A stretch of 64,000 nucleotides of DNA. Origin: Parcubacteria group bacterium Athens0714_12. GTDB lineage: Bacteria > Patescibacteriota > Patescibacteriia > UBA2591 > VMGY01. The notes below the pieces were generated by a model that saw nothing but the letters and a program-made list of their open reading frames with translations, had not been told where the DNA came from and ran no database searches. Below, piece by piece: positions 2,546 to 55,139 of this stretch (position 1 is the stretch's first letter; each line of letters opens with the position of its first letter). The stretch covers positions 38,804 through 102,803 of the forward strand of contig VMGY01000001.1 in assembly GCA_007378955.1 (NCBI GenBank). The letters run 5' to 3'. The position numbers were made by a program, and so were the translations under genes.

Positions 2546-3643
2546 ATGGCTGATTTAAATTCTAAAAATACAAATAAAAAAAATATTTTTTCTTGGGGGA
2601 TTTTTGGCAGAATAAGCATGAAAGAAAAAATATTTTTTACTAAAAATTTGGCGGTAATGGCAAAATCTGGACTGTCTCTTTCCGTTGCTTTGGAAATTTT
2701 AGCCAATCAAACGACAAATAAAAAATTTGAAATTGTTTTAAAAAATATCAAAGCAAACGTGGAAAAAGGAAATTCCTTGACATCTTCTTTGTCAAAATAC
2801 CCTGAAATTTTTTCTGAAATAACCGTTAATATGATAGAAGCCGGCGAAAAAAGCGGAAAATTAGAAGATGCTTTAAATCAAGTGACGTTGCAAATGAAAA
2901 AAAATTATGAATTAGTTTCAAAAATAAAAAGCGCGCTGACCTATCCCCTTTTTATTTTAACCGTGATGGCAATAATTGGAATTTTTATGTTTCTTTTTAT
3001 TATTCCTAAAATGCTGGCTATTTTTGAAGAAATCGACGCCCCTCTGCCATTAGTAACAAAAATTCTAATAAAAACGAGCGATTTATTTTCCCAATACGCG
3101 ATTTATTTTCTATTCGGATTGATAATTTTAATTATCTTATTTATAAAATTTAAAAAAACAAAAAAAGGAAAAATAATTATTCAAGGAATGTTATTAGAAA
3201 CGCCCATTTTTTCCGAGATAATAAAAAAAATAAATTTGGCTAAATTTTGCCGCACCTTCAGTTCTCTCTTAACAACTGATATTCCCATTGTCCAAACTCT
3301 TAAAATCACGGCCAATGTTCTGAATAATGTTCATTACAAGCAATTAATAATAGAATCTTGCGAAGAAGTAAAAAAGGGTAATTCTGTCGCCGCTCTTTTG
3401 GAAAAAAAACCGAAATTATTCCCCCCTCTCTTAACGCAAATGGTCAAAGTAGGCGAACAAACCGGAACTTTGGATAATATTTTAAATGATTTGACTCTTT
3501 TTTACGAACAAGAAGTAAAAGATACTTTAGACACCTTAGCTTCCTTGATAGAGCCGATTTTAATTGTTGTTTTAGGCGTCGGCGTCGGGCTAATCGCGTC
3601 TGCCATTATTTTACCGATGTATTCAATGACGCAAGCGTTTTAA
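2546..3643 (+). CDS. pilC: Type IV pilus/T2SS inner-membrane platform protein (GspF/PilC family)
   Basis: Two T2SS_F-like repeats with about three TM segments. Its size and its position beside the GspE-like ATPase fit PilC. Confidence 0.85.
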   Translation: MADLNSKNTNKKNIFSWGIFGRISMKEKIFFTKNLAVMAKSGLSLSVALEILANQTTNKKFEIVLKNIKANVEKGNSLTSSLSKYPEIFSEITVNMIEAGEKSGKLEDALNQVTLQMKKNYELVSKIKSALTYPLFILTVMAIIGIFMFLFIIPKMLAIFEEIDAPLPLVTKILIKTSDLFSQYAIYFLFGLIILIILFIKFKKTKKGKIIIQGMLLETPIFSEIIKKINLAKFCRTFSSLLTTDIPIVQTLKITANVLNNVHYKQLIIESCEEVKKGNSVAALLEKKPKLFPPLLTQMVKVGEQTGTLDNILNDLTLFYEQEVKDTLDTLASLIEPILIVVLGVGVGLIASAIILPMYSMTQAF

Positions 3644-3651
3644 AATTTAGT

Positions 3652-5820
3652 ATGAAACAAAATTCTGGTCTTACTTTAATAGAACTTATTATTACTATAA
3701 GTATTTTTATTATTGCCTCTTTGGGAATTTTAGGCCTTTTTTCTTATAGTTTTAAAACGGTCGGCAATAGCAAGGCAATTTTAACCGCGACAGGCTTGGC
3801 CGCCAAACAAATAGAAATTATCAGAAATATGCCTTATGATAAACTCGGAACAACGGAAGGCTGGCCGCCTGGCGATATTCCGTCTTCTCAAATAATAAAT
3901 CAAAACAAAATTAATTATACCATTCAAACGATTATTGAATATGTTGATGACCCTTATGACTCCCTATTCCCCGATGATACGACCGGAAATGATTACAAAA
4001 AAGCGGAAGTAATGGTTAGTTGGGATAAATTTTTTTCTATAAATCCAGTTAAGCTGACTACTAATGTCTGCGCCAAAGGATTAGAAATTCCTAATGGCGC
4101 CGGCGGCTTAAAAATTAATCTTTTTGACAATAATGGCAATCCGGTAAGTCAAGCTTCTGTTAAAATAGAAAATCTTGCTCTTGACCCAAATATTAAGATT
4201 AATAGAGAAACTAATAATGCGGGAATTTTGCAAATTTTAGACCTTCCTCCTTCCGGGGAAAATTATCATATCATTGTTTCCAAAGAGGGATACTCGCAAG
4301 ACTATACCATCGCGCCAGACTCTTTAGGCGCCTCTACTCCGCTTCAGCCAGATTTAAGAGTAATTGAGAAAGAGTTGACTGAAAAAACTTTTTCCATTGA
4401 TAAAATCAGCAGCTTAAAAATATCTACTTTAACAAAATATTGCTCTTCTGTTCCAAATATTTCTTTTAATATGCGAGGACAAAAATTAATCGGCCGAGAC
4501 CCCGATGTCTTTAAATATTACCAGAATTTAAGCACAAATAGTTCAGGAGAGTTAATTATTGATAATTTAGAATTTGATACTTATAATATAGCTTTAAACT
4601 CTCTGGCTTATGATCTTGCCGGCGCTAATCCCTTAATACCTTTGATACTCTTGCCTAATACCAACCAAAATTTTTATTTTATTTTAAAGCCTCATCAAGC
4701 TCATACTCTTTTAGCGACAGTTAAAGATAACAGCACGGGCTTAGTTTTATCGGGAGCGGAAGTAAAACTATCTAAAATCGGCTATGAAGAAACTTTAATC
4801 ACCGGCAAAGGCATTTGGCGGCAAACTGATTGGCAAGGAGGAAGCGGACAAGAAAATTGGGAGGAAGAAGATATGTATTTTGATGATGATGGAAATATTA
4901 ACACTAATAATTCTGAAGAAATGAAATTAGCTGGTGGCCATACTCAGCAAAATTTTAACGAAACATTTGATGACGCGGCTTATGAAAATTTTTCCGCCAC
5001 CACGGCTGATTGGAACACTACTTTAAAAGAATTAAGATTGCCTAAAATAGGAACGGACTTTTCTTCTTCCGCCACCGGGGAATCGCTAAAAATAAATTCC
5101 GCCGCTTATACGATTACTAAGGCTTATTTAAATGCCAGCCATACGTTAAACGGCGAAACAATAAATTATTATTTATCCGCTAATGGAGGCATTGATTGGG
5201 AAAATGTAATTTCCGGCGTTGAATATATTTTTATTAATCAAGGCAATGATTTGCGATGGAAAGCGGAATTATCCACGAATACTGTTTCTATCACGCCTTC
5301 TATTCAAAGCATCTCTATTAATTACACTGATTCAAATCCTTTTGCTAATAATGGCTTCTTAATATCTTCTTCTTATGATACCGGCACAAATAAAACGATT
5401 TGGGGCAATTTAAGCTGGGAACCTCAAAATCAAGCAATAGAATTAGGAGAATCACCAATAAAATTTCAAATTGCCGCGAATAATGACAAGGCGACTTGGA
5501 ATTTTAAAGGGCCTGATGGCACTGAAGAAACTTTTTATACCAGCCCGGACGCCTCTATTAATCCCATCCATAACAATCATCAATATATAAGATACAAAAT
5601 TTTACTTTCTACTGAAAACTCTTCTTTCAGCCCGATTGTTTCGGATATTACCATTGACTTTACTTCCGGCTGCAGCACCCCGGGTCAAGTCTTTTTTTCT
5701 CCTTTGGAAGAAACGGCTTACGATTTAGATATAAGCTTGGCGGGATATCAAGGTTATTTTGAAAGCATAAATGTTTCCGGAAATAATTCCACGAAAATTT
5801 TTTTAAATCCAAATCCATAA
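3652..5820 (+). CDS. Large pilin-like protein with a prepilin-type N-terminal cleavage/methylation domain
   Basis: The N-terminus 'GLTLIELIITISIFIIASLGILG' is a class III signal (G/LTLIE, Glu at +5). The 700-aa tail is Ser/Thr/Asn-rich. Confidence 0.7.
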   Translation: MKQNSGLTLIELIITISIFIIASLGILGLFSYSFKTVGNSKAILTATGLAAKQIEIIRNMPYDKLGTTEGWPPGDIPSSQIINQNKINYTIQTIIEYVDDPYDSLFPDDTTGNDYKKAEVMVSWDKFFSINPVKLTTNVCAKGLEIPNGAGGLKINLFDNNGNPVSQASVKIENLALDPNIKINRETNNAGILQILDLPPSGENYHIIVSKEGYSQDYTIAPDSLGASTPLQPDLRVIEKELTEKTFSIDKISSLKISTLTKYCSSVPNISFNMRGQKLIGRDPDVFKYYQNLSTNSSGELIIDNLEFDTYNIALNSLAYDLAGANPLIPLILLPNTNQNFYFILKPHQAHTLLATVKDNSTGLVLSGAEVKLSKIGYEETLITGKGIWRQTDWQGGSGQENWEEEDMYFDDDGNINTNNSEEMKLAGGHTQQNFNETFDDAAYENFSATTADWNTTLKELRLPKIGTDFSSSATGESLKINSAAYTITKAYLNASHTLNGETINYYLSANGGIDWENVISGVEYIFINQGNDLRWKAELSTNTVSITPSIQSISINYTDSNPFANNGFLISSSYDTGTNKTIWGNLSWEPQNQAIELGESPIKFQIAANNDKATWNFKGPDGTEETFYTSPDASINPIHNNHQYIRYKILLSTENSSFSPIVSDITIDFTSGCSTPGQVFFSPLEETAYDLDISLAGYQGYFESINVSGNNSTKIFLNPNP

Positions 5821-8784: not shown

Positions 8785-8815
8785 GAAAATGTCAAGGTTG
8801 AACCTTGACATTTTC
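8785..8815. terminator. Perfect 15-bp-arm palindrome between convergent genes (bidirectional terminator-like)
   Basis: The sequence is GAAAATGTCAAGGTT|GAACCTTGACATTTTC, followed by a T-rich run. Confidence 0.5.
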
Positions 8816-8886
8816 TTGAATAAAATACAAAAATAGTAGGTTTGTAATTCGTAAAATATAATGAGTTTTGCAACCATCTCAATAAC

Positions 8887-9882
8887 TTAACCAATATATT
8901 CCGCCAACTCCACTAATCTGCAGGCATAAGCCCATTCATTATCATACCAAGCGACAACTTTTACTAAATTATTTTTAGCCATCGTCAGAGCAAGGTCTAC
9001 AATGGAAGACTTGTCATTTCCTTTATAATCCATAGATACTAACGGCTCATCGCTGACATCTAAAATTCCTTTTAATTCTTTCTCTTGCGCTTTAATAAAA
9101 GCCTTATTAACTTGTTCGGCCGTGGCGTCATTGTTAATTATCGCTTGAAAATCAATAATTGAGACAGTCGGCGTCGGCACGCGCAAGGCAATGCCATCTA
9201 ATTTTCCTTTTAATTCGGGAATTGTTTTTTCCACTGTTTTTGCCGCGCCGGTAGTAGTGGGGATAATTGACAGACCTGCCGCTCTAGCTCGCCGCAAATC
9301 TTTATGCGGCAAATCTAAAATTTTTTGGTCATTGGTATAGCTATGGATTGTCGTCATAAATCCTTGTTTAATGCCAAAATTCTGATGCAAAACTTTTACC
9401 ACCGGCGCCAAACAATTAGTCGTGCAAGAACCGCAGGAAATAATTTTTTCCTTTGAATTATATTTTTTTTCATTAACTCCCAAAACATAAGTGGGAATAT
9501 CATGGCTTTTTGAAGGCGCGCTAATAATTACTTTTTTTGCTCCGGCTTTTAAATGTTTCTCCGCTTCTTCTTTTAAAGTAAATCTGCCCGTGCACTCCAA
9601 AACAATATCTATGCCCAATCTTTTCCAAGGTAATTTTTCCGGGTCGCTTTCGGCAAATACTTTGATTTTTTTACCATTGATTATTAAATATTCTTTATCA
9701 AAATTAATTTCTTTTTCATACTTGCCGTATAAAGAATCGTATTTCAACAAATGGGCAAGTGTTTTATTGTCCGTCAAATCATTAATGGCGGTTATTTCCA
9801 AATTTTTTTTAGTTAAAATGGCTTTTAAGCTTTGCCTACCTACTCTGCCAAAGCCATTGATGGCGATTTTTATTTTTTTCAT
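8887..9882 (-). CDS. gap: Glyceraldehyde-3-phosphate dehydrogenase, type I
   Basis: 'INGFGRVGR' NAD-binding N-terminus and the 'SCTTNCLAP' active-site Cys; 331 aa. Confidence 0.92.
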   Translation of the reverse strand: MKKIKIAINGFGRVGRQSLKAILTKKNLEITAINDLTDNKTLAHLLKYDSLYGKYEKEINFDKEYLIINGKKIKVFAESDPEKLPWKRLGIDIVLECTGRFTLKEEAEKHLKAGAKKVIISAPSKSHDIPTYVLGVNEKKYNSKEKIISCGSCTTNCLAPVVKVLHQNFGIKQGFMTTIHSYTNDQKILDLPHKDLRRARAAGLSIIPTTTGAAKTVEKTIPELKGKLDGIALRVPTPTVSIIDFQAIINNDATAEQVNKAFIKAQEKELKGILDVSDEPLVSMDYKGNDKSSIVDLALTMAKNNLVKVVAWYDNEWAYACRLVELAEYIG

Positions 9883-12593: not shown

Positions 12594-12725
12594 CTAAATC
12601 CCAAACAAATCCAAAATCCAAATAACCAAAATTCAAAACAAAAAACTATTTTTTGTCATTTGAATTTATAATTTAAAATTTATTTAGGGTTTAGATATTA
12701 GGATTTAGAATTTGTTTATAATAAT

Positions 12726-22425: not shown

Positions 22426-24168
22426 ATGCCTAAAATAAATCAATCTCAATTAGAGATAATGCGCCATTCTTGCGGCCATTTGATGGCCGCGGCTGTGCAA
22501 AAACTTTTTCCCGAAACAAAATTTGGCATCGGACCGAACATAGAAAACGGTTTCTATTATGATTTTGAATTGCCTGCAACTTTAACGCCCGAGTTTCTGC
22601 CAAAAATCAAAAAAGAAATGAAAAAAATGATCGGGCAAAATCTGCCTTTTATCAAAAAAGAAATGCCCGTTGATGAAGCGATTAAATTATTTAAAAGCAT
22701 AAACCAGCCTTATAAAATTGAATTATTGGAAGAAATGAAAAAGCAAGGCGAAAAATCGGTCAGCATTTATCAAACTGGCGATTTTATCGACCTTTGCCGA
22801 GGACCGCACCTTAAATCAACCGGAGAAATCGGCGCTTTTAAATTAACGAAAATAGCCGGCGCTTATTGGCGCGGCAATGAAAAAAATAAAATGCTCACCA
22901 GAATTTACGGCTTGGCTTTTTCCCATGAAGAAGAATTAAATAATCATTTAAAAGTTTTGGAAGAAGCGGAAAAAAGAGACCACCGGAATTTAGGCAAAGA
23001 ACTGGAATTATTTTCTTTTGAAGAAGAAATCGGCGCGGGCCTGCCCTTATGGCACCCAAAAGGCGCTTTTCTCCGCCATTTAATTGAAAATTATCTTTAT
23101 AAAGAATTAAATTCATCCGGCTACCAATGGGTGGTAACGCCGCATATCGGCAATATTAATCTATGGAAAACTTCCGGCCATTGGAATTTTTACCGCGAAA
23201 ATATTTATTCGCCGATAAAAATCGACGAGGAAGAATTTTTATTAAAGCCGATGAACTGCCCTTTTCATATCAAGATTTATAATTCTAAAATTCGCAGCTA
23301 TAAAGAATTACCCATCAGATTCGCTGAATTTGGCACAGTCTACCGTTATGAAAAATCAGGCGTTCTGCATGGCTTGACCCGAGTCCGCGGCTTTACCCAG
23401 GACGACGCTCATATTTGGTGTACTTTAGACCAATTGCCGAAAGAAATAAACAATCTTTTAAAAGACGGCTTAAAAATCCTCAGAAGATTCGGCTTTAAAG
23501 ATTTTAATATTTTTCTTTCCACCCGGCCGGAAAAATTTACCGGCGACCCTAAACATTGGGACAAGGCGGAAGAATCTTTGAAAAACGCCTTGGAAAAATC
23601 AAAGCTTAATTACCAAATTGACCCTGGCGCCGGAGTTTTTTACGGCCCTAAAATTGACATTAAAATAAAAGACAGTTTAGGCAGAGAATGGCAATGCACC
23701 ACCATTCAAGTTGATTTTAATCTGCCGGAAAAATTTGAATTAAATTATATCAATAAAGAAGGCAAGAAAGAACAGCCGATTATGATCCATCGCGCTCTTT
23801 TGGGCTCTTTGGAAAGATTTATCGGCGTCTTAATAGAACATTACGCCGGCGCCTTTCCAGTCTGGCTGGCGCCAATTCAAGTTCGCGTCGTCCCTGTCGG
23901 CTCCAAGCATATTAAAGCCAGTCAAAAATTAGCCCGAGAATTAAAAGAAAAAGATATCAGATGCGAGGTTGATGATTTGAATGAAACAGTCGGTTATAAA
24001 GTCAGAAAAGCGGAAAAACAAAAAATTCCTTATGTTTTAGTCATCGGTGATAAAGAAATAGACAGCAAAAATTTAACAGTCAGGATCAGAGGCAAAAAAG
24101 AAATGATTAAAATGTCCAGAAAAAAATTTGAAGAAAAAATCAGAGAAGAAATAGAAAAGAAAAAATAA
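22426..24168 (+). CDS. thrS: Threonyl-tRNA synthetase lacking the N-terminal TGS domain
   Basis: Begins at the editing-domain motif 'RHSCGHLMA', followed by a class II catalytic core and an anticodon-binding domain; 580 aa. Confidence 0.92.
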   Translation: MPKINQSQLEIMRHSCGHLMAAAVQKLFPETKFGIGPNIENGFYYDFELPATLTPEFLPKIKKEMKKMIGQNLPFIKKEMPVDEAIKLFKSINQPYKIELLEEMKKQGEKSVSIYQTGDFIDLCRGPHLKSTGEIGAFKLTKIAGAYWRGNEKNKMLTRIYGLAFSHEEELNNHLKVLEEAEKRDHRNLGKELELFSFEEEIGAGLPLWHPKGAFLRHLIENYLYKELNSSGYQWVVTPHIGNINLWKTSGHWNFYRENIYSPIKIDEEEFLLKPMNCPFHIKIYNSKIRSYKELPIRFAEFGTVYRYEKSGVLHGLTRVRGFTQDDAHIWCTLDQLPKEINNLLKDGLKILRRFGFKDFNIFLSTRPEKFTGDPKHWDKAEESLKNALEKSKLNYQIDPGAGVFYGPKIDIKIKDSLGREWQCTTIQVDFNLPEKFELNYINKEGKKEQPIMIHRALLGSLERFIGVLIEHYAGAFPVWLAPIQVRVVPVGSKHIKASQKLARELKEKDIRCEVDDLNETVGYKVRKAEKQKIPYVLVIGDKEIDSKNLTVRIRGKKEMIKMSRKKFEEKIREEIEKKK

Positions 24169-24191
24169 AAAACATTATAAAATTTTTTATA

Positions 24192-24366
24192 GAGATGGTT
24201 ACAAAACTGCTTCGTCGCGAAATTTAGATAGTTTCAGCCAAGACGAGGAAAACAAGCAAAATGATTTGAGTCGTAATAGAATTACGGCGAAAATCATTTT
24301 GCGCAGTTTGACGAAGTATTGGCTGAAAATAGCAAATTACAGCAGAAGTAGTTTTGTAACCATCTC
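24192..24366. repeat. 175-bp element bounded by 17-bp inverted repeats (GAGATGGTTACAAAACT / AGTTTTGTAACCATCTC) with nested internal palindromes
   Basis: The terminal inverted repeats are at 24192-24208 and 24350-24366. Inside are the nested palindromes CAAAATGATTT...AAATCATTTTG and CGTAAT-aga-ATTACG. Related motifs occur at 8863-8880 and 48384-48401. Confidence 0.6.
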
Positions 24367-24369
24367 ATA

Positions 24370-25038
24370 CTAGTAATTCGTAAAATAATTGATTTTTGCT
24401 TGAGACCTAAGAGAATTAATTAATAAATTAGCCGCCTCTGACATTTTTTGCTGTTCAATTTGATCTTTAATCTGCGCTTTATAACTATCTTCCTGGCCTT
24501 TGGGAATCTCAACTTTATTATCTTTAATGTATTTTGCCACTTCATCATCAGTAACTTGCACTTGGTCAGCGAGAAGTTTTTCTAATTTTTTTTGAATAAC
24601 AATCTTTTTCTTAAAATTCTCTTGCGTTAAGCCCTGCGCCGCGAGCGCTTGCGATAACGTCATGCCCTGCGCTTCAACTTGATTTTCCACGTTTTTTATT
24701 TCCGCGTCAATTTCATCATTGCTTACCGTAATTCCTTTTTTTAGCACTTCGTCATTAATAAGTTTTTGGGTGATAAGCGCGTCCAGCGCGTTTTTACCCG
24801 ACACGCTTTCAAGCTCTTTAATGACAGCAAACCGGCTGATGGGAGTTCCATTTACCATAGCGGCAATGAACAATCTTTTATAATAAAAAGCGAAAAATCC
24901 GATTAGAACGACCAAAACAACAATCGCCGCAATTTTTATGCCAAAAAGCCTTTGTCTTTTAATCTCTTTTAAATAATTTTCTCGTGTTAGAGGAGATTCT
25001 GTTGTTGTGGGTTGCGTTGTTTTAAAATTTTCATTCAT
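24370..25038 (-). CDS. Membrane-anchored SurA-N/PrsA-like chaperone-domain protein (hypothetical)
   Basis: Has a TM helix and a helical periplasmic-chaperone-like region; the similarity is weak. Confidence 0.35.
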   Translation of the reverse strand: MNENFKTTQPTTTESPLTRENYLKEIKRQRLFGIKIAAIVVLVVLIGFFAFYYKRLFIAAMVNGTPISRFAVIKELESVSGKNALDALITQKLINDEVLKKGITVSNDEIDAEIKNVENQVEAQGMTLSQALAAQGLTQENFKKKIVIQKKLEKLLADQVQVTDDEVAKYIKDNKVEIPKGQEDSYKAQIKDQIEQQKMSEAANLLINSLRSQAKINYFTNY

Positions 25039-25167: not shown

Positions 25168-25947
25168 TTAAAAAAGAGTTTTGCGGTTATATTTTCTTTC
25201 TTCCTCGCCGGCTGCCGCGCGATAACGGCAAAAATCGCAATCAGGCGAAGCGCCGGGAATATTGTCGCTCATTAAACATTTGCGCGCTTCAAGTAAAACG
25301 TTTTCAATCCAAGAATCATCGCCTTTATAAGGGATTAATTCAATATCAAATTCTAATTTGGCGTCAAAAGCCTTACAGTCTGTTTTGCCATTGCAATAAA
25401 CAAAATAACCAACCGGCGAAACTTGGTAGCCATTTTGGCGAAAAAGCCATTGATAAATTTCCATCTGCCTCTTATAGCCAATCTGCCAATCCGCGTCCAA
25501 GTTTAACTGCCCTGTTTTTGAAGTCGCTTTGTAATCAACAATGATAAATTCTCCCTTTGGATTAACCCAAAGGTCGTCAATTCCGCCGGTAACAAAAAAA
25601 TTGCTCGGCTTGTGCAAAAAAGCGATTCCGCCGCGCAAAGCGTCTCGCCAAAAATCCAATTCTTTATGCGCCAAAGGCACCGCGTCAAGGCCATAAGTTT
25701 TCATTAAAGGATGGATTGTATTTTTTGCCCGATGAAGGTCAAATTCTTTTTTGAGCAACGCGTCAACCGCGGAATTAAGGGTGAAAGGATAACCCGGCGG
25801 CTGGCCGACGCCCAATCGCCTGTCAAGATAAAAACAGCGCGGACAATTCAAAAATAAATCAATTTTTGAACGGCTTAATCTGAAAGGATATTTTGAATTC
25901 GGGTCAAATAAATTCGATTTTCTTTTAGGGGTATAATATTTTGACAT
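25168..25947 (-). CDS. PD-(D/E)XK nuclease-superfamily protein (Cas4/RecB-nuclease-like) with cysteine clusters
   Basis: 'GIDDLW' and 'IVDYKATSK' fit the D...D/ExK core. Cysteines occur at the N-terminus 'CPRC' and the C-terminus 'CDFC', as in Fe-S Cas4/AddB nuclease domains. Confidence 0.6.
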   Translation of the reverse strand: MSKYYTPKRKSNLFDPNSKYPFRLSRSKIDLFLNCPRCFYLDRRLGVGQPPGYPFTLNSAVDALLKKEFDLHRAKNTIHPLMKTYGLDAVPLAHKELDFWRDALRGGIAFLHKPSNFFVTGGIDDLWVNPKGEFIIVDYKATSKTGQLNLDADWQIGYKRQMEIYQWLFRQNGYQVSPVGYFVYCNGKTDCKAFDAKLEFDIELIPYKGDDSWIENVLLEARKCLMSDNIPGASPDCDFCRYRAAAGEEERKYNRKTLF

Positions 25948-25968
25948 ATGATTATTGAACAGTTAAAA

Positions 25969-26003
25969 TTTGATTGATAATTGATAATTGATAATTGATA
26001 ATT
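25969..26003. repeat. Tandem heptamer (TTGATAA)x~4.5, followed by a GCGATAA-aaaa-TTATCGC hairpin
   Basis: The repeat is visible by direct reading and lies in the intergenic space between the nuclease and helicase genes. Confidence 0.6.
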
Positions 26004-26024
26004 TTCACGTTTTGCGATAAAAAA

Positions 26025-27665
26025 TTATCGCGCGTCAGATTCTTTCAAAAACAGCCGCGCGAGGCGCAGTTCGCGGTAGGAAAAACTTTCGCCGAGAATC
26101 TCGCGGACCACCGTCAATCTCGTATCCCCGGTCTCCTTAAAAACATTTTTTATTAATTCAAACCTTTTGCCCCATGGCCGCAAATATGACAAATCAAGGT
26201 TTTCATCCCGCTCAATTAATTTTTCCAGATGCCCTAAAATCGTATCCTCGGTCAAGCCGCGCTTTTCGGCAATTTCTTTAATGGAAAATTTTTGTAAAAC
26301 TAACATTTCCGTTTCCTCATATGTTGAAACGGATTTTAATTTTTCCGCCGGCGCGACAGATTTTAAAAATTCTTCCTGATTTTTTTCTTTTTCCAATTGG
26401 TTTAATTTTCTTAATCCAATACTAACCATCTCTGACATTCGCATTAATTCTTTATCTAATAATAACACTTCTTCATTGACTTGAAGAGCGATCTGATTCA
26501 AGCCCATCAATTTCAATCCCTCAAATGAGCGGACCCGCGAAAGCGCGACATAACCCATTCCTTCAACAAATGATTTGGAAAGGTCAATTTCCACCGCGTC
26601 CAAGCTCATCCCCTGGCTTTTATGCACGGTGATTGCCCAGGCCAAACGAAGCGGTATTTGGATAATTTCCGCTTTCGCCATCCCCTCTTCTTCTATCCGC
26701 CAGCTTTCCGGGCCGGCGATTATTTCTTTTCCTGTTTTACAAACCCGTACCACGGGAAAACCGTCTTCGTCAAAATCTTCAACTATACCAAGAGTGCCGT
26801 TCACGTAGCCTTTGTCAAAATTATTTTTAACAAACATCACCGCCGCTCCCCTTTTAAGTCGCAATTCCTCCGGCGCAAGACAGTTTTTTTTGAGAAAAGC
26901 CGCCAATTTTTTGTTGCCGCGGCTAGTCGCGAAATATGTTTTCATCTCTCCGCCAAGCGCTTCAAGATTTTTCTTATTGATAATATCAACATCAATATTA
27001 TGCGTGTAAAGTTTGGTCGCGGTAGAAAAATTTCGCGGACTTTTTTGGTATCTTTCTCTTAAAAATGACAATGTCCGCTCTCCCGCCTTATTCGCCCTGA
27101 TGTCGTTTAAGACTTTGATTAAAACGTCATCGCCCTGCCGATACTGCTCGCTTAAATAACAAATCTTTAAATTCATTTCCTGCCATATTTTTGATTTATT
27201 GGCAAAAGTTCTTTCCGTGCTGTTTTTTGAAACCGGTGGCAATTGAAAAAAATCTCCGCAAAGGACGACTTGCATACCGCCGAATGGCCGATTGTCTTTT
27301 TTGAAAGCCCGGCATACTTTATCAACCAAATCCAAATAAAAATAATGAAGCATGGAAACTTCATCGATGATTAAAACTTTGGTTTTTTCAAACCTTTTGG
27401 CGAGATAACGTTTTTTTGAAAGATCGCTGATTTCTCTTTCAGACATACTCTCTTTTATGCCGATTCCCGCCCAAGAATGAATCGTGATGCCATTCAGATG
27501 CGTGGCGGCAATTCCCGTGGAAGCGGTAACGCCGACGCCGACGCCCTTATTTTTTAAAAAATCAATATAAGCGTTAAGCGCGAATGTCTTCCCGCTTCCG
27601 GCCGGTCCAGTCAAAAAAACATTTTTTCCTAATTTTAATATTTCCAACGCCTCTTTTTGTGTCAT
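26025..27665 (-). CDS. Pif1/RecD-like SF1 DNA helicase with a C-terminal helicase-HTH domain
   Basis: Walker A 'GPAGSGKT', Walker B 'VLIIDEVSM', and 'VHKSQGMS' (motif VI-like). The C-terminal HTH reads 'KEIAEKRGLTEDTILGHLEKL'. Confidence 0.8.
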   Translation of the reverse strand: MTQKEALEILKLGKNVFLTGPAGSGKTFALNAYIDFLKNKGVGVGVTASTGIAATHLNGITIHSWAGIGIKESMSEREISDLSKKRYLAKRFEKTKVLIIDEVSMLHYFYLDLVDKVCRAFKKDNRPFGGMQVVLCGDFFQLPPVSKNSTERTFANKSKIWQEMNLKICYLSEQYRQGDDVLIKVLNDIRANKAGERTLSFLRERYQKSPRNFSTATKLYTHNIDVDIINKKNLEALGGEMKTYFATSRGNKKLAAFLKKNCLAPEELRLKRGAAVMFVKNNFDKGYVNGTLGIVEDFDEDGFPVVRVCKTGKEIIAGPESWRIEEEGMAKAEIIQIPLRLAWAITVHKSQGMSLDAVEIDLSKSFVEGMGYVALSRVRSFEGLKLMGLNQIALQVNEEVLLLDKELMRMSEMVSIGLRKLNQLEKEKNQEEFLKSVAPAEKLKSVSTYEETEMLVLQKFSIKEIAEKRGLTEDTILGHLEKLIERDENLDLSYLRPWGKRFELIKNVFKETGDTRLTVVREILGESFSYRELRLARLFLKESDAR

Positions 27666-27756
27666 AATTATAATTATTATCGCGCTTGATATGTAATTAA
27701 TTACTTACATCCATTATACCAAAAACCGTCGTTTACGGCGATTTCTAAAATCTTAA

Positions 27757-27909
27757 ATAATAGATTCTGTGAATTACGAAATGCGTTTTTTAAAACAAAA
27801 ATACGCGGGTAGATTGGAGCCTCTGCTCCAATCTTAGCTAATCTTGCTCCGAGTAGAGGCTCGGAGCTACCCATTTCGTATTTCGTAATTCACAGATAGA
27901 TTATTAATT
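27757..27909. mobile_element. MITE-like mini-element with ~25-bp terminal inverted repeats and two internal GC-rich hairpins
   Basis: The left arm TAATAGATTCTGTGAATTACGAAATG pairs with the right arm CATTTCGTATTTCGTAATTCACAGATAGATTATTA. Inside are the hairpins AGATTGGAGC-ctct-GCTCCAATCT and GCTCCGAG-tagagg-CTCGGAGC. No ORF is present. Confidence 0.5.
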
Positions 27910-28174
27910 TTATTCTTTAATAATTTTTCCATTCAATATAACACATTCAATAAAAAATAATGTTAAATAAGCAAAACTTAGAGCAACCATAAATGAAATA
28001 TTATATTTCAAAGGTATATTCTTATGTATTATTTTTTCATTTCTTATGACTCACGAATTATCTAATGCCAAAACTATATCTCTACTTACCCCAAACTTTT
28101 TTCATTTATCATTGGAGTCCCTTAGATAAGCTAATTTTTTACTAATTTTACCTTTTTTATTTATTGAAAATGTA

Positions 28175-28183
28175 TGTGGATAA
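28175..28183. promoter_or_regulatory. Perfect DnaA-box 9-mer (TGTGGATAA, the reverse complement of TTATCCACA) in the promoter region of the LexA-MTase gene
   Basis: Exact match to the E. coli-type consensus. It sits about 30 bp upstream of the TATAAT at 28214-28219. Confidence 0.4.
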
Positions 28184-28213
28184 CTTATTGTTTTCATTTC
28201 GGTGAATGTTCGG

Positions 28214-28219
28214 TATAAT
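28214..28219 (+). promoter_or_regulatory. Consensus -10 hexamer TATAAT for the LexA-MTase gene, immediately followed by a GATC site
   Basis: 'ggTATAATGATCg' lies 69 nt upstream of the ATG at 28288. Confidence 0.4.
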
Positions 28220-28287
28220 GATCGTATATAATAAATTTAATACTCTCGTCAATCTTCGCCAAGTCTTTGATTGACGCAATCAATAAT

Positions 28288-29760
28288 TTTATGCCTACGC
28301 TTACTAAAAGACAAAAACAAATTTACGATTATATTAAAAGCTATGTAGAAAAAAATGGCCTCTCCCCTACTTTTAATGAAATAAAAAAACATTTCAAATT
28401 GTCGGCTGCTTCAACAGTCCATCAGCACATTGGGGCTTTGGTAGAAAAAGAAATGCTTATTAAAAATAATTACAACTCTCGCGGAATTGAATTAAATAAA
28501 AAAAATAGAAAAGATTTAATCAAAATTCCTCTTGCGGGAACTATTGCCGCCGGCCAACCAATTGAAACGTTCCAAACAAACGAAACAATCACGGTTCCTA
28601 AAAATCTTCTTTCAAAATCCGGCGAGCATTTTGCCCTTAAAGTTAAAGGCGACAGTATGATTGACGAAGGTATTTTTGACGACGACACTGTTATAATCAG
28701 AAAACAAGATACCATTGAAAACGGGGAAACTGCGGTCGCTCTGATAAACGGCAATGAGGTTACATTAAAAAAAATATACAAAGAAAAAAATCGCATCCGG
28801 CTTCAGCCGGCGAATCCAAATTTAAAACCTCTTTTTGTTAAAAATGTTATCATTCAGGGCAAAGTTATCAGCGCTTTTAGAAATATAGAAAAAATTGAAG
28901 AAGAAGATACTATTTTAAAATCTGACGAAAAATCAAAAGGACTTGCGGCAATAGAGCAAAAACATTATTTCAATAGAAATAATTTTGTTTTATACCATAG
29001 CGACTGCGTCTCAATGCTCAATAGTATGAAGGAAAACTCTGTGGATATGATTTTCGCTGATCCGCCTTATCTTCTTTCAAATGGCGGTTTTAGCGTTCAT
29101 GCCGGGCGGCGCGTAAGCGTTGATAAGGGCGAATGGGATAAAAGCAACGGACTTAAAAAAGATTTTGAATTTCATCTTGAATGGATACAAGCCGCGAGGC
29201 GCGTTCTAAAGCCGCACGGAACTATTTGGATTAGCGGCACTTACCATTCCATATATCAATGCGGTTTCGCGGTTCAGGTCGCCAAATTTCATATTTTAAA
29301 CGATATCGCGTGGTTCAAGCCAAACGCTTCTCCGAATTTAAGTTGCCGTTATTTCACCGCAAGCCACGAAACCTTGCTTTGGGCGCGTAAAGATAAAAAC
29401 GCAAAGCATGCTTTTGATTATGATTTGATGAAAAATGGCAACTGGCCGGAAGATCAGCTCAAAAAACCCGGGTTTCAGATGCGTTCGGTTTGGGCGATGG
29501 GAACGCCGAAACGGATTGAAAAAAAATTTGGGAAACATCCAACGCAAAAACCGGAGGATTTATTAAAAAGAATTATTCTCGCGAGTACAAATAAAGACGA
29601 TTTAGTTGTCGATCCATTTACCGGAAGTTCTACGACAGGAATCGCTTCCCATCTTTTAGGAAGGCGCTTTATCGGCATTGATACCGAAAAAAAATATTTA
29701 GATTTATCAATTAAACGATTTGAAGAATTAGAACGTAATTTAAAAAATCCATCAAATTAA
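28288..29760 (+). CDS. Fusion protein: a complete LexA repressor (wHTH + S24 autopeptidase) fused to a beta-class DPPY N6A/N4C DNA methyltransferase
   Basis: The N-terminus 'LTKRQKQIYDYI...GLSPTFNEI...ASTVHQHIGALVEKEML' is the LexA DNA-binding domain. It is followed by 'AAGQPI', the nucleophile 'VKGDSMIDEG' and the general base 'EVTLKKIY'. The C-terminal half carries motif IV 'IFADPPYLL' before motif I 'VVDPFTGSSTTG', which is the beta-class order. The two halves form one uninterrupted ORF. The track starts it at a TTG at 28267; I use the ATG at 28288. Confidence 0.75.
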   Translation, partial: FMPTLTKRQKQIYDYIKSYVEKNGLSPTFNEIKKHFKLSAASTVHQHIGALVEKEMLIKNNYNSRGIELNKKNRKDLIKIPLAGTIAAGQPIETFQTNETITVPKNLLSKSGEHFALKVKGDSMIDEGIFDDDTVIIRKQDTIENGETAVALINGNEVTLKKIYKEKNRIRLQPANPNLKPLFVKNVIIQGKVISAFRNIEKIEEEDTILKSDEKSKGLAAIEQKHYFNRNNFVLYHSDCVSMLNSMKENSVDMIFADPPYLLSNGGFSVHAGRRVSVDKGEWDKSNGLKKDFEFHLEWIQAARRVLKPHGTIWISGTYHSIYQCGFAVQVAKFHILNDIAWFKPNASPNLSCRYFTASHETLLWARKDKNAKHAFDYDLMKNGNWPEDQLKKPGFQMRSVWAMGTPKRIEKKFGKHPTQKPEDLLKRIILASTNKDDLVVDPFTGSSTTGIASHLLGRRFIGIDTEKKYLDLSIKRFEELERNLKNPSN

Positions 29761-29773
29761 ACATGAAAAATAT

Positions 29774-30418
29774 ATGAAAATTATAACTCGCGCAATGGCA
29801 ATAAATAATCTAAAAAAATATATCGGCCAAGATTTACAAAAGTTAGCTTTAAAGTACGGTATTACAACCTATAAAGCTGGAAAACAAAACAAGGGTTGGA
29901 AAGGTCTTATTCTAGAAATACTAGCCGGATTGGAAAACAATATTTCTAAAGCTCCTAATGGCTTATCATACGAATTAAAATCCGTTAGTTCGCATTATAT
30001 AAAAAACAAGCTTGTGCCAAAAGAAACTATGGCGATAACTATGATTAATCCGCAAGAGTTAAAAGCCCATTCTTTTTTTGAAAGCCATTGTTGGGCAAAA
30101 TTAAAATCTCTAATTTTTTGCGCTGTGATGTGGCATGGAAAAAACGCGAAAACATCGGAATTATTAAAAGTCATAAGCTTGGATTTTGCGGAAAATGATG
30201 ATTTAATAAAGGAAGTAAGGGATGATTATGACTTCATACGAAACAAGCTAATTATTAATGGCTTTGACGCATTAACTGGAAAAGATGGGAAATGGATACA
30301 AGCAAGAACAAAAGGTATTGGCGGCATAAATCCTCAAACAGGAAAAAAACGGCCGGTAACTCGCGCGTTTTACGCAAGGCCTATTTTGATAAAAAAATTT
30401 TTTGAAATGGCAAATTAA
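29774..30418 (+). CDS. MutH/Sau3AI-family (GATC-type) restriction endonuclease
   Basis: 'KGWKGLILEILAGL...GLSYELKSV...KETMAITMINPQEL' aligns with the MutH core 'KGWIGVLLEIWLG...LGVELKTIP...ETTFVCVAPL'. The C-terminal 'RAFYARP' matches MutH 'RGFYLKK'. Confidence 0.7.
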   Translation: MKIITRAMAINNLKKYIGQDLQKLALKYGITTYKAGKQNKGWKGLILEILAGLENNISKAPNGLSYELKSVSSHYIKNKLVPKETMAITMINPQELKAHSFFESHCWAKLKSLIFCAVMWHGKNAKTSELLKVISLDFAENDDLIKEVRDDYDFIRNKLIINGFDALTGKDGKWIQARTKGIGGINPQTGKKRPVTRAFYARPILIKKFFEMAN

Positions 30419-39838: not shown

Positions 39839-39849
39839 AAAATTTATCT

Positions 39850-39950
39850 TATACTACGAAAGTATGAAAAAATACGAAAATTAAATTAAAATTATTTCGT
39901 AGTTTCGTACAATTTCGTACTTTCATGAGAGTTCGTAATTTCGTATGAGT
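39850..39950. promoter_or_regulatory. Array of about seven TTTCGTA / TACGAAA heptamers upstream of miaB
   Basis: The sequence reads tACGAAAgta, tACGAAAat, atTTCGTAg, TTTCGTAca, aTTTCGTAct, gTTCGTAaTTTCGTAtg. Confidence 0.4.
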
Positions 39951-39952
39951 AT

Positions 39953-41185
39953 ATGCAATACCATATTATCACCTACGGCTGCCAAATGAATAAATCTGAT
40001 TCAGAACGAATCGCCTCTGTTATAGAAAAATACGGCCTTTCCCCCGCGCCTAAAAAAGAAAATGCTGATTTAATCATTATTAATGCTTGTTCTGTCAGGC
40101 AATCGGCAATGGACAGAATTTATGGGCAAATCAGATATTTAAAATTAAAAAATAAAAAAATAAAAATTTTTCTGACTGGCTGTTTACTGGCTAAAGACAA
40201 AGAAAAACTTAGAAATAAAACGGATTTGATTTTTAAGATAAAAAATTTACTAAAACTTTCTAATTTTCTTAACCAAAAATTAAAAAAACAAATTAGCGAC
40301 GATTATTTTCAAATTTCCCCCAAATATCAAAACAAATTTTCCGCCTATATTCCCATTATGACCGGGTGCAATAATTTCTGCTCTTATTGCGTAGTCCCTT
40401 ATGTCCGCGGCCGCGAATATTGCCGTTCGCCAAAAAAAATTATCAAAGAAATAAAAAATTTAATAAAAAACGGCTGCAAACAAATAATTTTACTGGGGCA
40501 AAATGTGAATTCTTATAAATCCAAAGGAGTTAATTTCCCGAAACTTTTAAAAATGATTAATGATTTAAAAGGCGATTTCTGGCTGGCTTTTTTTACTTCC
40601 CATCCCAAAGATTTATCGGATGAACTTATAAAAACAATGGCGAAATCTAAAAAAATCAATCCTTATTTGCATTTGCCAATCCAATCGGGCGACAATCAAA
40701 TTTTAAAAAAAATGAACAGGAAGCATACGGCTGAAAATTATGAAAACTTAATAAAAAAAATCCGCCGAAAAATTCCCCAAATCGCCATTTCTACTGATAT
40801 TATTATCGGTTTTCCCGGGGAAACAAAAAATCAATTTCAAAATACGGCTGAATTAATGGAGAAAATAAAATTTGATATGGCTTATCTGAATAAATATTCT
40901 CCGCGCCAACAAACCGCCGCCTTTAAGTTAAAAGATGATGTTTCCCAAAAAGAAAAGAAAAGAAGGTGGGCGGTTTTGAATGAAATTTTAAAAAAAACCG
41001 CTTTGGAAAATAATCAGAAACTAATCGGCAAGACGATAGAAGTTTTGGCGGAAAAAAATAATTTCGGGCGCGGTTTTAATTTTAAAGACGTTCAATTTAA
41101 AGGCGATAAAAAATTAATCGGCAAATTTGTTAAAATAAAAATAACCCAAGCTAATCCCTGGAGCTTAAAAGGCGAATTAATATGA
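39953..41185 (+). CDS. miaB: MiaB/RimO-family radical-SAM methylthiotransferase (MiaB-like)
   Basis: MTTase N-terminus 'ITYGCQMNKSDSE' and radical-SAM 'CNNFCSYCVVP'. It is adjacent to miaA; the specific paralog is uncertain. Confidence 0.75.
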   Translation: MQYHIITYGCQMNKSDSERIASVIEKYGLSPAPKKENADLIIINACSVRQSAMDRIYGQIRYLKLKNKKIKIFLTGCLLAKDKEKLRNKTDLIFKIKNLLKLSNFLNQKLKKQISDDYFQISPKYQNKFSAYIPIMTGCNNFCSYCVVPYVRGREYCRSPKKIIKEIKNLIKNGCKQIILLGQNVNSYKSKGVNFPKLLKMINDLKGDFWLAFFTSHPKDLSDELIKTMAKSKKINPYLHLPIQSGDNQILKKMNRKHTAENYENLIKKIRRKIPQIAISTDIIIGFPGETKNQFQNTAELMEKIKFDMAYLNKYSPRQQTAAFKLKDDVSQKEKKRRWAVLNEILKKTALENNQKLIGKTIEVLAEKNNFGRGFNFKDVQFKGDKKLIGKFVKIKITQANPWSLKGELI

Positions 41186-46676: not shown

Positions 46677-46901
46677 TTATTTTTTAAACATTTTATAAAT
46701 CGGTTTGATAGTAAAAATAATTGCTAAAACTAACCACCACCAAATACTCAACCAATTAGTTAAATCATAATCCCAAATAATTTTTATTCCTTTAAGCAAA
46801 ACAATCGTGAATAAAATCACGGCTAATTTCGCGCAAGATATGTCGCAACAATTCAATTTTTTAATTTTCTCGCTAATAAATTTACAACACATATTTCTCA
46901 C
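46677..46901 (-). CDS. Small Cys-rich two-TM membrane protein, translationally coupled to prfB
   Basis: 74 aa. Its stop lies 4 nt before the prfB ATG. Confidence 0.35.
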   Translation of the reverse strand: MRNMCCKFISEKIKKLNCCDISCAKLAVILFTIVLLKGIKIIWDYDLTNWLSIWWWLVLAIIFTIKPIYKMFKK

Positions 46902-47099
46902 CTCCTCTCGCCAATTTTATCTAAATTTTTGATTTGATTACAAAATTGAGCGTCCGCCGCAGCCTCTTGCCGACCGAAGCCTTGGTGAAGGCTGGTAGCG
47001 AAGGCGGACTCGCGAATTATTCACGAATTAACACAAATTAGTACAAATTAAATTATTATATTCGTAATAATTCGCGGAAATTTGTACTAATTCGCGATT

Positions 47100-48353
47100 T
47101 TATTTTCTCTCCTCCAATTTCGCTTTTACTTTTTTCTCTTTTCCTTTGCTTAAAATTTTTAATTCTATTTCATCGCCCGGCTTGTATTTAGAAATTTCTT
47201 TCGCCAAGGAACGTTTTTCATTTATTTTTTGGCCGTTAACTTCCAAAATTATGTCATTTTCCAATAAGCCTGCTTTGTCGGCCGGACTGCCGGGAATAAC
47301 CGCCAAATCAACGGCATTCTGGCCTCTCTGAATTAAGGCGCCATAATTCACTGAAAGATTATTCGCCTTGGCAATCGCCTCATTGATAATTAAATATCTG
47401 ACACCCAAATACGGCCTGACTATTCTACCGTATTTTTTAACGTTCTCAATTACTGCTTTTGCCTCATTAACCGGAATGGCAAAACCAATCAATTGTCCGC
47501 TTTGCGAAACAGCGGTATTAATGCCGATTACCTTGCCATTTAAATCAATAAGCGGCCCCCCTGAATTGCCTGGATTAATCGCCGCGTCTGTCTGGATTAC
47601 ATTTTCCAAAGTTTCGCTTCTGCCTAAAGTATCGCCGGCGACAATCGTCCGCCCAATACCGGAAATCACGCCCTGCGTCACCGTGTTTCTATACTCACCT
47701 AAAGCATTGCCAATCGCCACTACTGTCTGGCCTGCTTGCAATTTATCAGAATCGCCCAATTCCACGGGAATTAAATTTTTCGCTTCCACTTTAATGATAG
47801 CAATATCGTTTGTCGGGTCAACGGCCAAAATTTCGGCTTTGTATTTTTCACCGTCATTGGTTACTATGGTGTATTCCGCTTCTTCATCGCTGACGACATG
47901 TTTATTAGTCAAAACCATGCCATCTTGGGAGATTATAAATCCACTGCCCCAGCCGACTTCTTCTTTTTCTGTCTTTTGTTCTACTCTTGGCGTATAAAAT
48001 CTAAACGGGGAGCCATATCCGCCAAAAAAATCGTCATTAAAAAAATCTTCGGGAGAAGAAGGACTCTGATAATATTTAGTAACATCTTTAGTAATGACAA
48101 TACTGACCACTGAAGGAGAAATCTTTTTCACCGCTTTTATCGTGGAAGATTCTTCTATTTTAATTGAGTTATCGGAAACCGGAACCTCTTTGACGATTTT
48201 TTGAAACATCGGCGGCAAAGAATTCGGCAAATAATTGGAAAGATAGCTGCTGCCTAAAATTCCGGCAATCCCGCCGGTAAGACCGCCGACGAAAAAACTG
48301 ATAATTAAGGTAATAATAAATAATTTTTGAGGTTTTAAATTTTGGTTGTCCAT
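47100..48353 (-). CDS. htrA: HtrA/DegP-family serine protease (trypsin domain + PDZ)
   Basis: 'LTNKHVV' (His), 'DIAII' (Asp), 'GNSGGPL' (Ser), and a PDZ domain. It has an N-terminal TM helix. Confidence 0.9.
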   Translation of the reverse strand: MDNQNLKPQKLFIITLIISFFVGGLTGGIAGILGSSYLSNYLPNSLPPMFQKIVKEVPVSDNSIKIEESSTIKAVKKISPSVVSIVITKDVTKYYQSPSSPEDFFNDDFFGGYGSPFRFYTPRVEQKTEKEEVGWGSGFIISQDGMVLTNKHVVSDEEAEYTIVTNDGEKYKAEILAVDPTNDIAIIKVEAKNLIPVELGDSDKLQAGQTVVAIGNALGEYRNTVTQGVISGIGRTIVAGDTLGRSETLENVIQTDAAINPGNSGGPLIDLNGKVIGINTAVSQSGQLIGFAIPVNEAKAVIENVKKYGRIVRPYLGVRYLIINEAIAKANNLSVNYGALIQRGQNAVDLAVIPGSPADKAGLLENDIILEVNGQKINEKRSLAKEISKYKPGDEIELKILSKGKEKKVKAKLEERK

Positions 48354-48412
48354 AAAACTTTATTTAATCCCTAAATGTATAATGAGATGGTTGTAAAACT
48401 CTTTTTTCTATT

Positions 48413-54600: not shown

Positions 54601-54731
54601 CTTATGCTCCTTTTTTAGCCATACTTAAATAAATTCTAAATCCTAATATCTAAATCCTAAAAAAATTCTAAATTCAAATGTTCAAAATTCAAAACCCTTT
54701 TGATTATTTGGATTTTGTATTTTGAATTTGT

Positions 54732-55139
54732 TTAGGATTTCAAATTTTGTATTTCGAATTTTAACAATCTCTTCTCCAATCTCTCCATCTTTAAAGCGTC
54801 TTTTTCTTTCTGATGGTCATATCCCAATAAATGCAAAAGGCCATGAATCAATAAAATTTCTATTTCTTTTTTTATGGAATGTTTTTTCTCTTTCGCCTGC
54901 CTTTTTGCCTGTGGATAACAAATAATAATTTCCTTAACATCTTCAAAACTTAATACATCGGTGATACGATTTTTTTTTCTGTAAATTTTATTTAAATTTT
55001 TTATCGCCTTGTCCCCGACAAAAGCAATGGAAATTTCCTTGCTTTCTTTTTCCGCCATTTCTTTTAAACATTCTTTAATTATCTTTTTTATCCATCCTTT
55101 GCTAATCGACGCTTTAACTAAATTATTAATTTCAATCAT
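54732..55139 (-). CDS. ybeY: Endoribonuclease YbeY
   Basis: 'HGLLHLLGYDH' zinc motif. Confidence 0.85.
   Translation of the reverse strand: MIEINNLVKASISKGWIKKIIKECLKEMAEKESKEISIAFVGDKAIKNLNKIYRKKNRITDVLSFEDVKEIIICYPQAKRQAKEKKHSIKKEIEILLIHGLLHLLGYDHQKEKDALKMERLEKRLLKFEIQNLKS

Follow-up and report, generated by a model that had tools for sequence, protein, structure and literature searches.

An intergenic 18-base motif in a Parcubacterial genome as the probable end of an IS5-family insertion sequence and a 175-bp MITE

The window (the whole 64-kb stretch of DNA analysed here) carries four copies of an 18-base motif, GAGATGGTTRYAAAACT, which is very probably (probability about 0.9) the terminal inverted repeat of an IS5-family insertion sequence (IS), with the segment at 24192–24366 being a non-autonomous MITE and the two solo copies being truncated relics. 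The window is AT-rich (35.5% GC) and its ThrRS is nearest to Patescibacteria (Parcubacteria/Minisyncoccia-type) proteins. We propose that an IS5-family IS of ~909 bp with orfA and orfB circulates in Patescibacteria (CPR bacteria) and that its transposase would recognise the 17–18-mer. A 175-bp derivative that keeps only the IS ends would be mobilised presumably by transposase supplied in trans, and may still be active in the source genome. This MITE would have been pasted into an A/T-rich T-A-n-A-W-T site between thrS and a SurA-like gene with duplication of ATA, and the solo copies would have been left as the remains of earlier insertions. For annotation, the puzzling intergenic repeats would then be explained as transposon ends, i.e. 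ordinary selfish DNA, and the adjacent TATAAT should not be taken as a promoter nor the hairpin as an RNA gene.

The motif and the 175-bp element in the window

The pattern GAGATGGTTGYAAAACTC has four matches in the 64-kb window, at 8863–8880 (minus), 24192–24209 (plus), 24349–24366 (minus) and 48384–48401 (plus). Only 0.11 matches are expected by chance and none of 100 dinucleotide shuffles gets to four, which bears out the original prediction of a repeated 18-mer at these positions. Two of the four copies fit the pattern exactly and the other two have two mismatches, at the degenerate position and at the last base; the 17–18-mer form is written GAGATGGTTRYAAAACT(C). Neither a relaxed scan (up to four mismatches) nor a gapped scan reveals further copies near these four. 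By the ORF calls every copy is intergenic and the flanking genes converge at two of the three loci, as had been claimed; the third, at 48.38 kb, is between two minus-strand genes. What had been overlooked is that the copies at 24192 and 24349 are the two ends of a single element.

This element (24192–24366) is a non-coding long hairpin of 175 bp, with the motif forming terminal inverted repeats of 17–22 bp. It is placed on the plus strand, defined as the orientation with the conserved loops GACGAGGAA in the left arm and TGACGAAG in the right arm. The left repeat, GAGATGGTTACAAAACTG, is at 24192–24209 (plus) and the right repeat, which reads GAGATGGTTACAAAACTA on the minus strand, is at 24349–24366; the arms are perfect over 17 bp, or extend to 22 bp with one G.T (24192–24213 and 24345–24366). 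A 3-bp direct repeat, ATA, flanks the element as its target-site duplication, with the left copy at 24189–24191 and the right copy at 24367–24369, directly before the stop codon of the SurA-like gene (24370–24372). The element sits between the stop codons of the convergent thrS (22426–24168) and SurA-like (24370–25038) genes and nearly fills the gap between them, which would be ~26 bp if the element were removed. The longest frame from an internal ATG is 10 codons and no ORF is listed there. A small-ORF reading (GAG ATG GTT ...) was rejected on inspection, the frames being of 8–10 codons in the MITE or overlapping real genes on the opposite strand.

Removal of the element would give the junction …TTTTTTATA-CTAGTAATT…, and no such empty site was found among the same-species contigs examined, all of which carry the MITE and both solo copies (one of them, L119, has 16 differences from the window in 21.7 kb). 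The nearest other relatives (78–80% ThrRS identity) have a different gene order and are not syntenic. The window element is alignable with elements at 14 other loci in Patescibacteria-type MAGs, with a mean column identity of 83%, and with 61 unique metagenome copies.

Distribution of the family and its insertion sequence partner

A scan for GAGATGGTTRYAAAACT in one genome per prokaryotic species returned at least 118 stretches, and roughly half of the matches listed are in Patescibacteria MAGs or in unlabelled MAGs of the same type. The hosts listed include Falkow-, Gribaldo-, Kerfeld-, Kuenen- and Staskawiczbacteria, Paceibacterota, Parcubacteria and Saccharibacteria. Among the matches listed, inverted motif pairs ~160 nt apart are present in Falkowbacteria, Gribaldobacteria, Paceibacterota and Parcubacteria, pairs in Saccharibacteria are shorter (~45–115 nt apart), and the motif is single in Kerfeldbacteria and Kuenenbacteria. 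There are several element copies per genome among these matches, and several contigs end ~120 nt inside the element, as is expected because repeats break assemblies; such repeats fragment MAG assemblies, and could be used to trace recent gene flow among CPR lineages. The matches listed in unrelated phyla are single, mostly GC-richer and apparently coding, with no similarity past the 17-mer. Viral contigs contribute 30 matches, each a single 17-mer without extended similarity to the element, and carriage by phages was rejected, these single matches being consistent with a chance background.

In the genome loci the same ends bound non-coding forms of several sizes, including minis of 49–76 bp, a 130-bp form in Saccharibacteria, 175–178-bp elements and longer ones with insertions, and perfect 3-bp flanking repeats are present in 19 of 32 genome elements. 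The 130-bp form is one sequence at three sites, in both orientations (L011, L054 and L112). Other size classes, including the 49–76-bp minis, are represented at L062, L072, L106, L010, L085, L086 and L071, most with 3-bp duplications, and have terminal repeats in common but unrelated interiors. With several size classes sharing one end sequence, a single transposon end therefore serves several MITE subfamilies.

A metagenome scan for two arms 135–160 nt apart returned at least 120 stretches, yielding at least 132 elements at no fewer than 111 distinct sites with at least 62 distinct sequences; groundwater metagenomes are among the sources. Among the matches listed, 86 of 111 sites have a perfect 3-bp direct repeat around the element, whereas a shifted control gives 4 of 111. 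At least 42 distinct sites are occupied by a single 175-nt sequence without any difference, and at least 13 by another, among these matches, and up to three element copies are found within 10 kb, such that the family is clearly multi-copy in relatives of the source genome. The identical copies at these 42 or more sites are from a single groundwater population. The duplicated triplets in the matches listed are ATT (25), AAT (18), ATA (16), TTA (5), TAA (5) and others, and the outer flanks at both ends read T(−6) A(−5) n A(−3) W(−2) T(−1), which points to an A/T-rich target that is palindromic. Such a preference explains why TATAAT immediately precedes the 48384 copy and why −10-like hexamers lie beside many copies elsewhere, without invoking promoters. 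About 112 of the 120 metagenome sites listed are intergenic, and there is no orientation bias relative to genes either among the matches listed (42 versus 41 and 43 versus 47) or in the small set.

The same 17–18-mer forms the terminal inverted repeats of insertion sequences of 908–909 bp at two Patescibacteria loci. The first (L044, Kuenenbacteria, 2817–3724) is a 908-bp element bounded by motif repeats and containing two consecutive ORFs in frames 0 and −1, encoding a 131-aa DUF4096 protein and a 136-aa DDE_Tnp_1 protein. These ORFs match positions 1–108 and 134–255 of NCBIfam NF033580, ‘IS5 family transposase’; the E value is 1e-28 for each half-ORF, with 1.5e-23 for PF13340 and 1.1e-13 for PF01609, all in this partner IS and not in the window. 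The half-ORFs score 100 and 99 bits, slightly below the whole-protein cutoff of 110 because the transposase gene is split. The second full copy (L103, 2582–3490) is 909 bp long and has 78% protein identity to the first. In both, orfB is in the −1 frame relative to orfA and the inverted repeats are 17–18 bp; L103 is flanked by a perfect 3-bp duplication (TAC|TAC) and L044 is not (TAT/AAT). No transposase of an NF033580-type IS is present in the 64-kb window, which contains only non-autonomous copies. The MITE resembles the IS only in the 17–18-bp ends and not at all in its interior, and is therefore not a simple deletion derivative.

Members of the IS1031 subgroup are ~857 bp long with 17-bp inverted repeats, orfA and orfB with a −1 frameshift, and exclusively 3-bp direct repeats (PMC12016507). 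The partner resembles IS1031-like elements (e.g. ISLrh; PMC12016507) in its length of ~0.9 kb, its 17–18-bp repeats starting with GA, its ORFs for a DUF4096 N-terminal and a DDE_Tnp_1 C-terminal part in frames 0 and −1 (L044 and L103), and its 3-bp direct repeats. It differs in its target, which is reported as TNA for IS1031 (PMC12016507) and is A-W-T within T-A-n-A-W-T here, the leading duplications being ATT, AAT and ATA. Because these duplications do not fit TNA, the partner is best described, from its sequence, as an IS5-family member that is IS1031-like by architecture only. The existence of an IS with matching ends and the published IS1031 architecture argues that the motif is a transposon end.

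The 175-bp element accordingly has properties by which a MITE is recognised: it is non-coding and shorter than 500 bp, is multi-copy, has terminal inverted repeats and a duplication of fixed length, and there is an autonomous element with the same ends. It is like bacterial MITEs in being small, bounded by inverted repeats with a short duplication, intergenic in either orientation, and able to fold as a long hairpin. The Correia elements of Neisseria are bacterial MITEs with a TA target duplication. The family described here differs from them in its IS5-type partner, its 3-bp duplication and its host clade, and also in its 175-bp interior, in which covarying stems and GA-rich loops are conserved over many lineages. 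Tourist-type MITEs belong to PIF/Harbinger, an IS5-related superfamily of eukaryotes (PMC12730594). They too are non-autonomous, depend on IS5-related DDE transposases and have 3-bp duplications of A/T-rich trinucleotides (PMC12730594), but are eukaryotic and without sequence relationship to the 175-bp element, such that the likeness is mechanistic only. A literature search of incomplete coverage, and thus weak evidence of novelty, found no description of MITEs in Patescibacteria/CPR; the present family documents an active-looking IS5-type IS/MITE pair in these lineages, which have very small genomes.

A constrained hairpin and competing readings of the motif

The plus strand of 24192–24366 is predicted to fold as RNA into a near-perfect hairpin of −83 kcal/mol (z −13); the opposite strand gives −66.5 kcal/mol, 17 kcal/mol worse, and the DNA fold is −51 kcal/mol (z −13). 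In a comparison of 15 genome copies, each set in a different lineage context, compensatory double changes are present at 26 of 62 pairs, and pairing holds in 96.6% of cells as against 89.3% in shuffles. Covariation scores 0.304, whereas shuffles give 0.152 and none of 500 attains 0.304; slid controls are at 0.10 or below. In the 62 unique sequences compared (the window and 61 from metagenomes, among the matches listed), at least two Watson-Crick types are present in 30 of 53 pairs. Two unpaired motifs are near-invariant, GRC-GA-G-GA-AAAC in the left arm and GTTT-GA-C-GAA-GYC in the right arm (5′-GUUU-GA-C-GAA-GYC as RNA). These GA-rich motifs are direct and not inverted repeats, and are therefore not explicable by end symmetry; they would face each other as tandem G.A-type loops. 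Neither the compensatory changes nor the conserved loops are predicted for plain ‘junk’.

These features could be taken to indicate that the 175-nt element is first of all a gene for a structured non-coding RNA, or else a cis-regulatory RNA (a 3′-UTR stabiliser or terminator), with ends that pair and with dispersal as a secondary matter, and a conserved regulatory or RNA element was one of the two possibilities raised originally. The very stable fold, the compensatory changes and the conservation of unpaired GACGAGGAA and TGACGAAG favour such an RNA, as does an excess of G.U over A.C cells on one strand (157 versus 42). We nonetheless regard it as improbable, in that nothing beyond the fold points to it. 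No relevant Rfam 15 covariance model matches at the gathering score or at E≤10 (the best at the motif loci are spurious miRNA and antitoxin hairpin models at E>1), orientation is unbiased with respect to neighbouring genes, the stem lacks a following U-tract and no terminator is called, and identical copies with 3-bp duplications occupy at least 42 unrelated sites. The DNA strand folds as well relative to shuffles, and the G.U excess is gone when counted per pair position (17 versus 16, balanced). The other possibility raised, a MITE/REP-like family, holds in its MITE part, the motif being common to the IS5-family IS and the 175-bp element, and fails in its REP-like part. Spread as a REP/REPIN-type element by a RAYT (an IS200/IS605-like tyrosine/HUH transposase) acting on single-stranded hairpins would fit a long intergenic palindrome kept by compensatory changes, one strand of which folds somewhat better, and the two families have in common that they are dispersed intergenic palindromes with a hairpin maintained by selection. 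REP elements make no target duplication and have no DDE partner; the 175-bp element has both, with 3-bp duplications at the 86 of 111 listed sites and ends that also bound an IS with a DDE (DDE_Tnp_1) transposase, and is thus not a member. With no RAYT or IS200-like gene found beside any copy either, this origin deserves almost no credence.

The 18-mer might instead be a protein-binding operator or promoter element, comprising a TATAAT −10 box and an adjoining conserved site, by which the host would control nearby genes, with the solo copies as functional units. TATAAT comes directly before the motif at 8857 and 48377, where the original prediction had correctly placed TATAATGAG; the 48384 copy has htrA close downstream, every same-species contig has the solo copies, and other CPR loci have solo copies near gene starts. 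Yet mobile copies have the −10-like T-A-n-A-W-T flank at each of their ends, which makes it a target preference, and the placement is inconsistent, after stop codons at 8.86 and 24.2–24.4 kb and before a start codon at 48.4 kb. A promoter scan is not above shuffles at 24.2 and 48.4 kb and at 8.86 kb finds only an inward-facing match, and several solo copies in other CPR loci retain 5–6 more bases of the MITE interior. A promoter was also rejected for want of a consistent −35/−10 arrangement in either motif orientation, and we consider an operator or promoter role very unlikely.

If the element is a MITE, its structurally constrained interior raises the question of what selects hairpins in MITEs. 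Since orientation relative to genes is random, selection most plausibly acts on the element's own propagation; a hairpin or cruciform might conceivably bring the ends together, or the loops might be subterminal protein-binding sites. A bolder and rather doubtful suggestion is that the 175-nt element goes beyond a passive MITE and that selection acts on the folded single strand. This strand might be a transposon-carried protein-binding RNA module, or alternatively a cruciform or ssDNA hairpin might be needed by the DDE IS5-type transposase for synapsis; we know of no such requirement in the IS5-type transposase family.

Solo copies, other repeats and neighbouring genes

The solo terminal repeat at 8863–8880 (minus; GAGATGGTTGCAAAACTC) has ATT on both sides and lies 6 nt past the stop codon of the GAPDH gene (8887–9882, minus strand; 7 nt stop-to-start). 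It is present with unchanged spacing in all same-species contigs. A terminator-like hairpin visible on inspection nearby (~8788–8818) could serve both convergent genes, although the terminator scan called none. The other solo repeat (48384–48406, plus) consists of GAGATGGTTGTAAAACTC and five further bases and is preceded by TATAAT, the preferred target. It is 30 nt upstream of the htrA-like start codon, within the 59 nt that separate the start of the HtrA-like protease gene (47100–48353) from a small minus-strand ORF, and is also present in same-species contigs. Neither solo copy has a partner arm at up to four mismatches or in the gapped scan, and a hand-aligned 49-nt mini-element (8832–8880) was rejected as not above background, hundreds of windows scoring equally in the gapped scan. 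The copy ending at 8880 has 21 nt in common with the IS end in L014, L103 and L113, and the 48384 copy has 23 nt in common with the MITE end in L117, including a rare GT variant. Because of this extended end identity, limited to 21–23 nt and weak as evidence for the 8880 copy, and of the interior bases retained by solo copies elsewhere, the copies at 8863–8880 and 48384–48401 are read as probable truncated relics of earlier insertions.

The 14-mer GTAATTCGTAAAAT is identical at 8844–8857 and 24373–24386, as noted originally, and as a pair alone is not beyond chance in 64 kb. It is part of a 28-nt segment (8843–8870, plus) made up of GTAATTCGTAAAAT, ATAAT and the inner 8 nt (8863–8870) of the solo repeat. 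A second copy (24373–24399, plus; 24 of 28 positions identical, one gap) ends in a degenerate repeat fragment, GATTTTTGC, adjoins the MITE and extends over the final codons of the SurA-like ORF. The two segments have a local score of 39, where the best of 3000 random window pairs reaches 36, and neither is more than 6 nt from a motif copy; no further exact copies of GTAATTCGTAAAAT are present in the 118 genome-scan loci. The simplest reading, which is tentative, is that the two segments are relics of one further subfamily; the GTAATTCGTAAAAT segment would probably be the subterminal sequence of such a relic, with 24373–24399 an older one.

Related AATTCGTAA cores had also been assigned to the family. 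The words TTCGTAA/TTACGAA are indeed present at 27.77, 27.88, 39.85–39.95 and 47.02–47.09 kb, but they are not counted as members because only a 7-mer is in common. TACGAAA/TTTCGTA is the most intergenic-enriched 7-mer of the window (nine intergenic versus two coding), and its copies are concentrated at 27767–27895 and 39846–39950. The 27.8-kb cores belong to a separate MITE-like inverted-repeat element (27767–27895), which has perfect 16-bp ends (CTGTGAATTACGAAAT/ATTTCGTAATTCACAG) and a GC-rich branched core, folds with about −63 kcal/mol whichever strand is taken, is flanked by the 7-bp direct repeat ATAGATT and has no Rfam match. An end-like ATTTCGTAATTCAAA is also found in L122, just downstream of thrS in a relative, and in L185 and L231. 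At 39846–39950, just before miaB (39953–41185), is an imperfect palindrome of seven TTTCGTA/TACGAAA units, two of them inverted and five direct; it may be an array bound by a regulator or else a third inverted-repeat element. In a relative whose ThrRS is 80% identical (L121, 2321–2464) miaB directly follows thrS, and the spacer contains a GC-rich hairpin (CCCCGCACATAA.TCGTAC ... GTACGAATTATGTGCGGGG) with ACGAATTA-type words. The region at 46940–47100, which follows the htrA-like gene and leads up to a small SD-preceded membrane ORF (~46690–46893, minus), has a GC-rich hairpin (46950–47010) and after it two inverted repeats that interleave (CGCGAATTATT.ACGAAT... and AATTAGTACAAATT...), much as alternative hairpins would; its Rfam matches are only spurious. 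A further dispersed intergenic repeat (CTAAATCC.AAA..AAT.C.AAAT...AAAATTCAAAAC) is found at 12594–12718 and 54626–54761, with 83% direct and 74% inverted similarity, and a local 64-nt inverted repeat is present at 54631–54761.

An unusual gene cluster at 25168–30418 encodes a PD-(D/E)XK nuclease and a Pif1-family helicase with an HTH_40 domain, and includes a non-coding stretch of 600 nt (27666–28266) that contains a single perfect DnaA-box, TGTGGATAA (28175–28183). The following gene (28267–29760) encodes a single fusion protein with a LexA DNA-binding domain, an S24 peptidase and an N6/N4 DNA methylase, and is followed by a gene for a MutH-like endonuclease; the LexA-methylase fusion beside MutH suggests a damage-regulated restriction-modification or nicking system.
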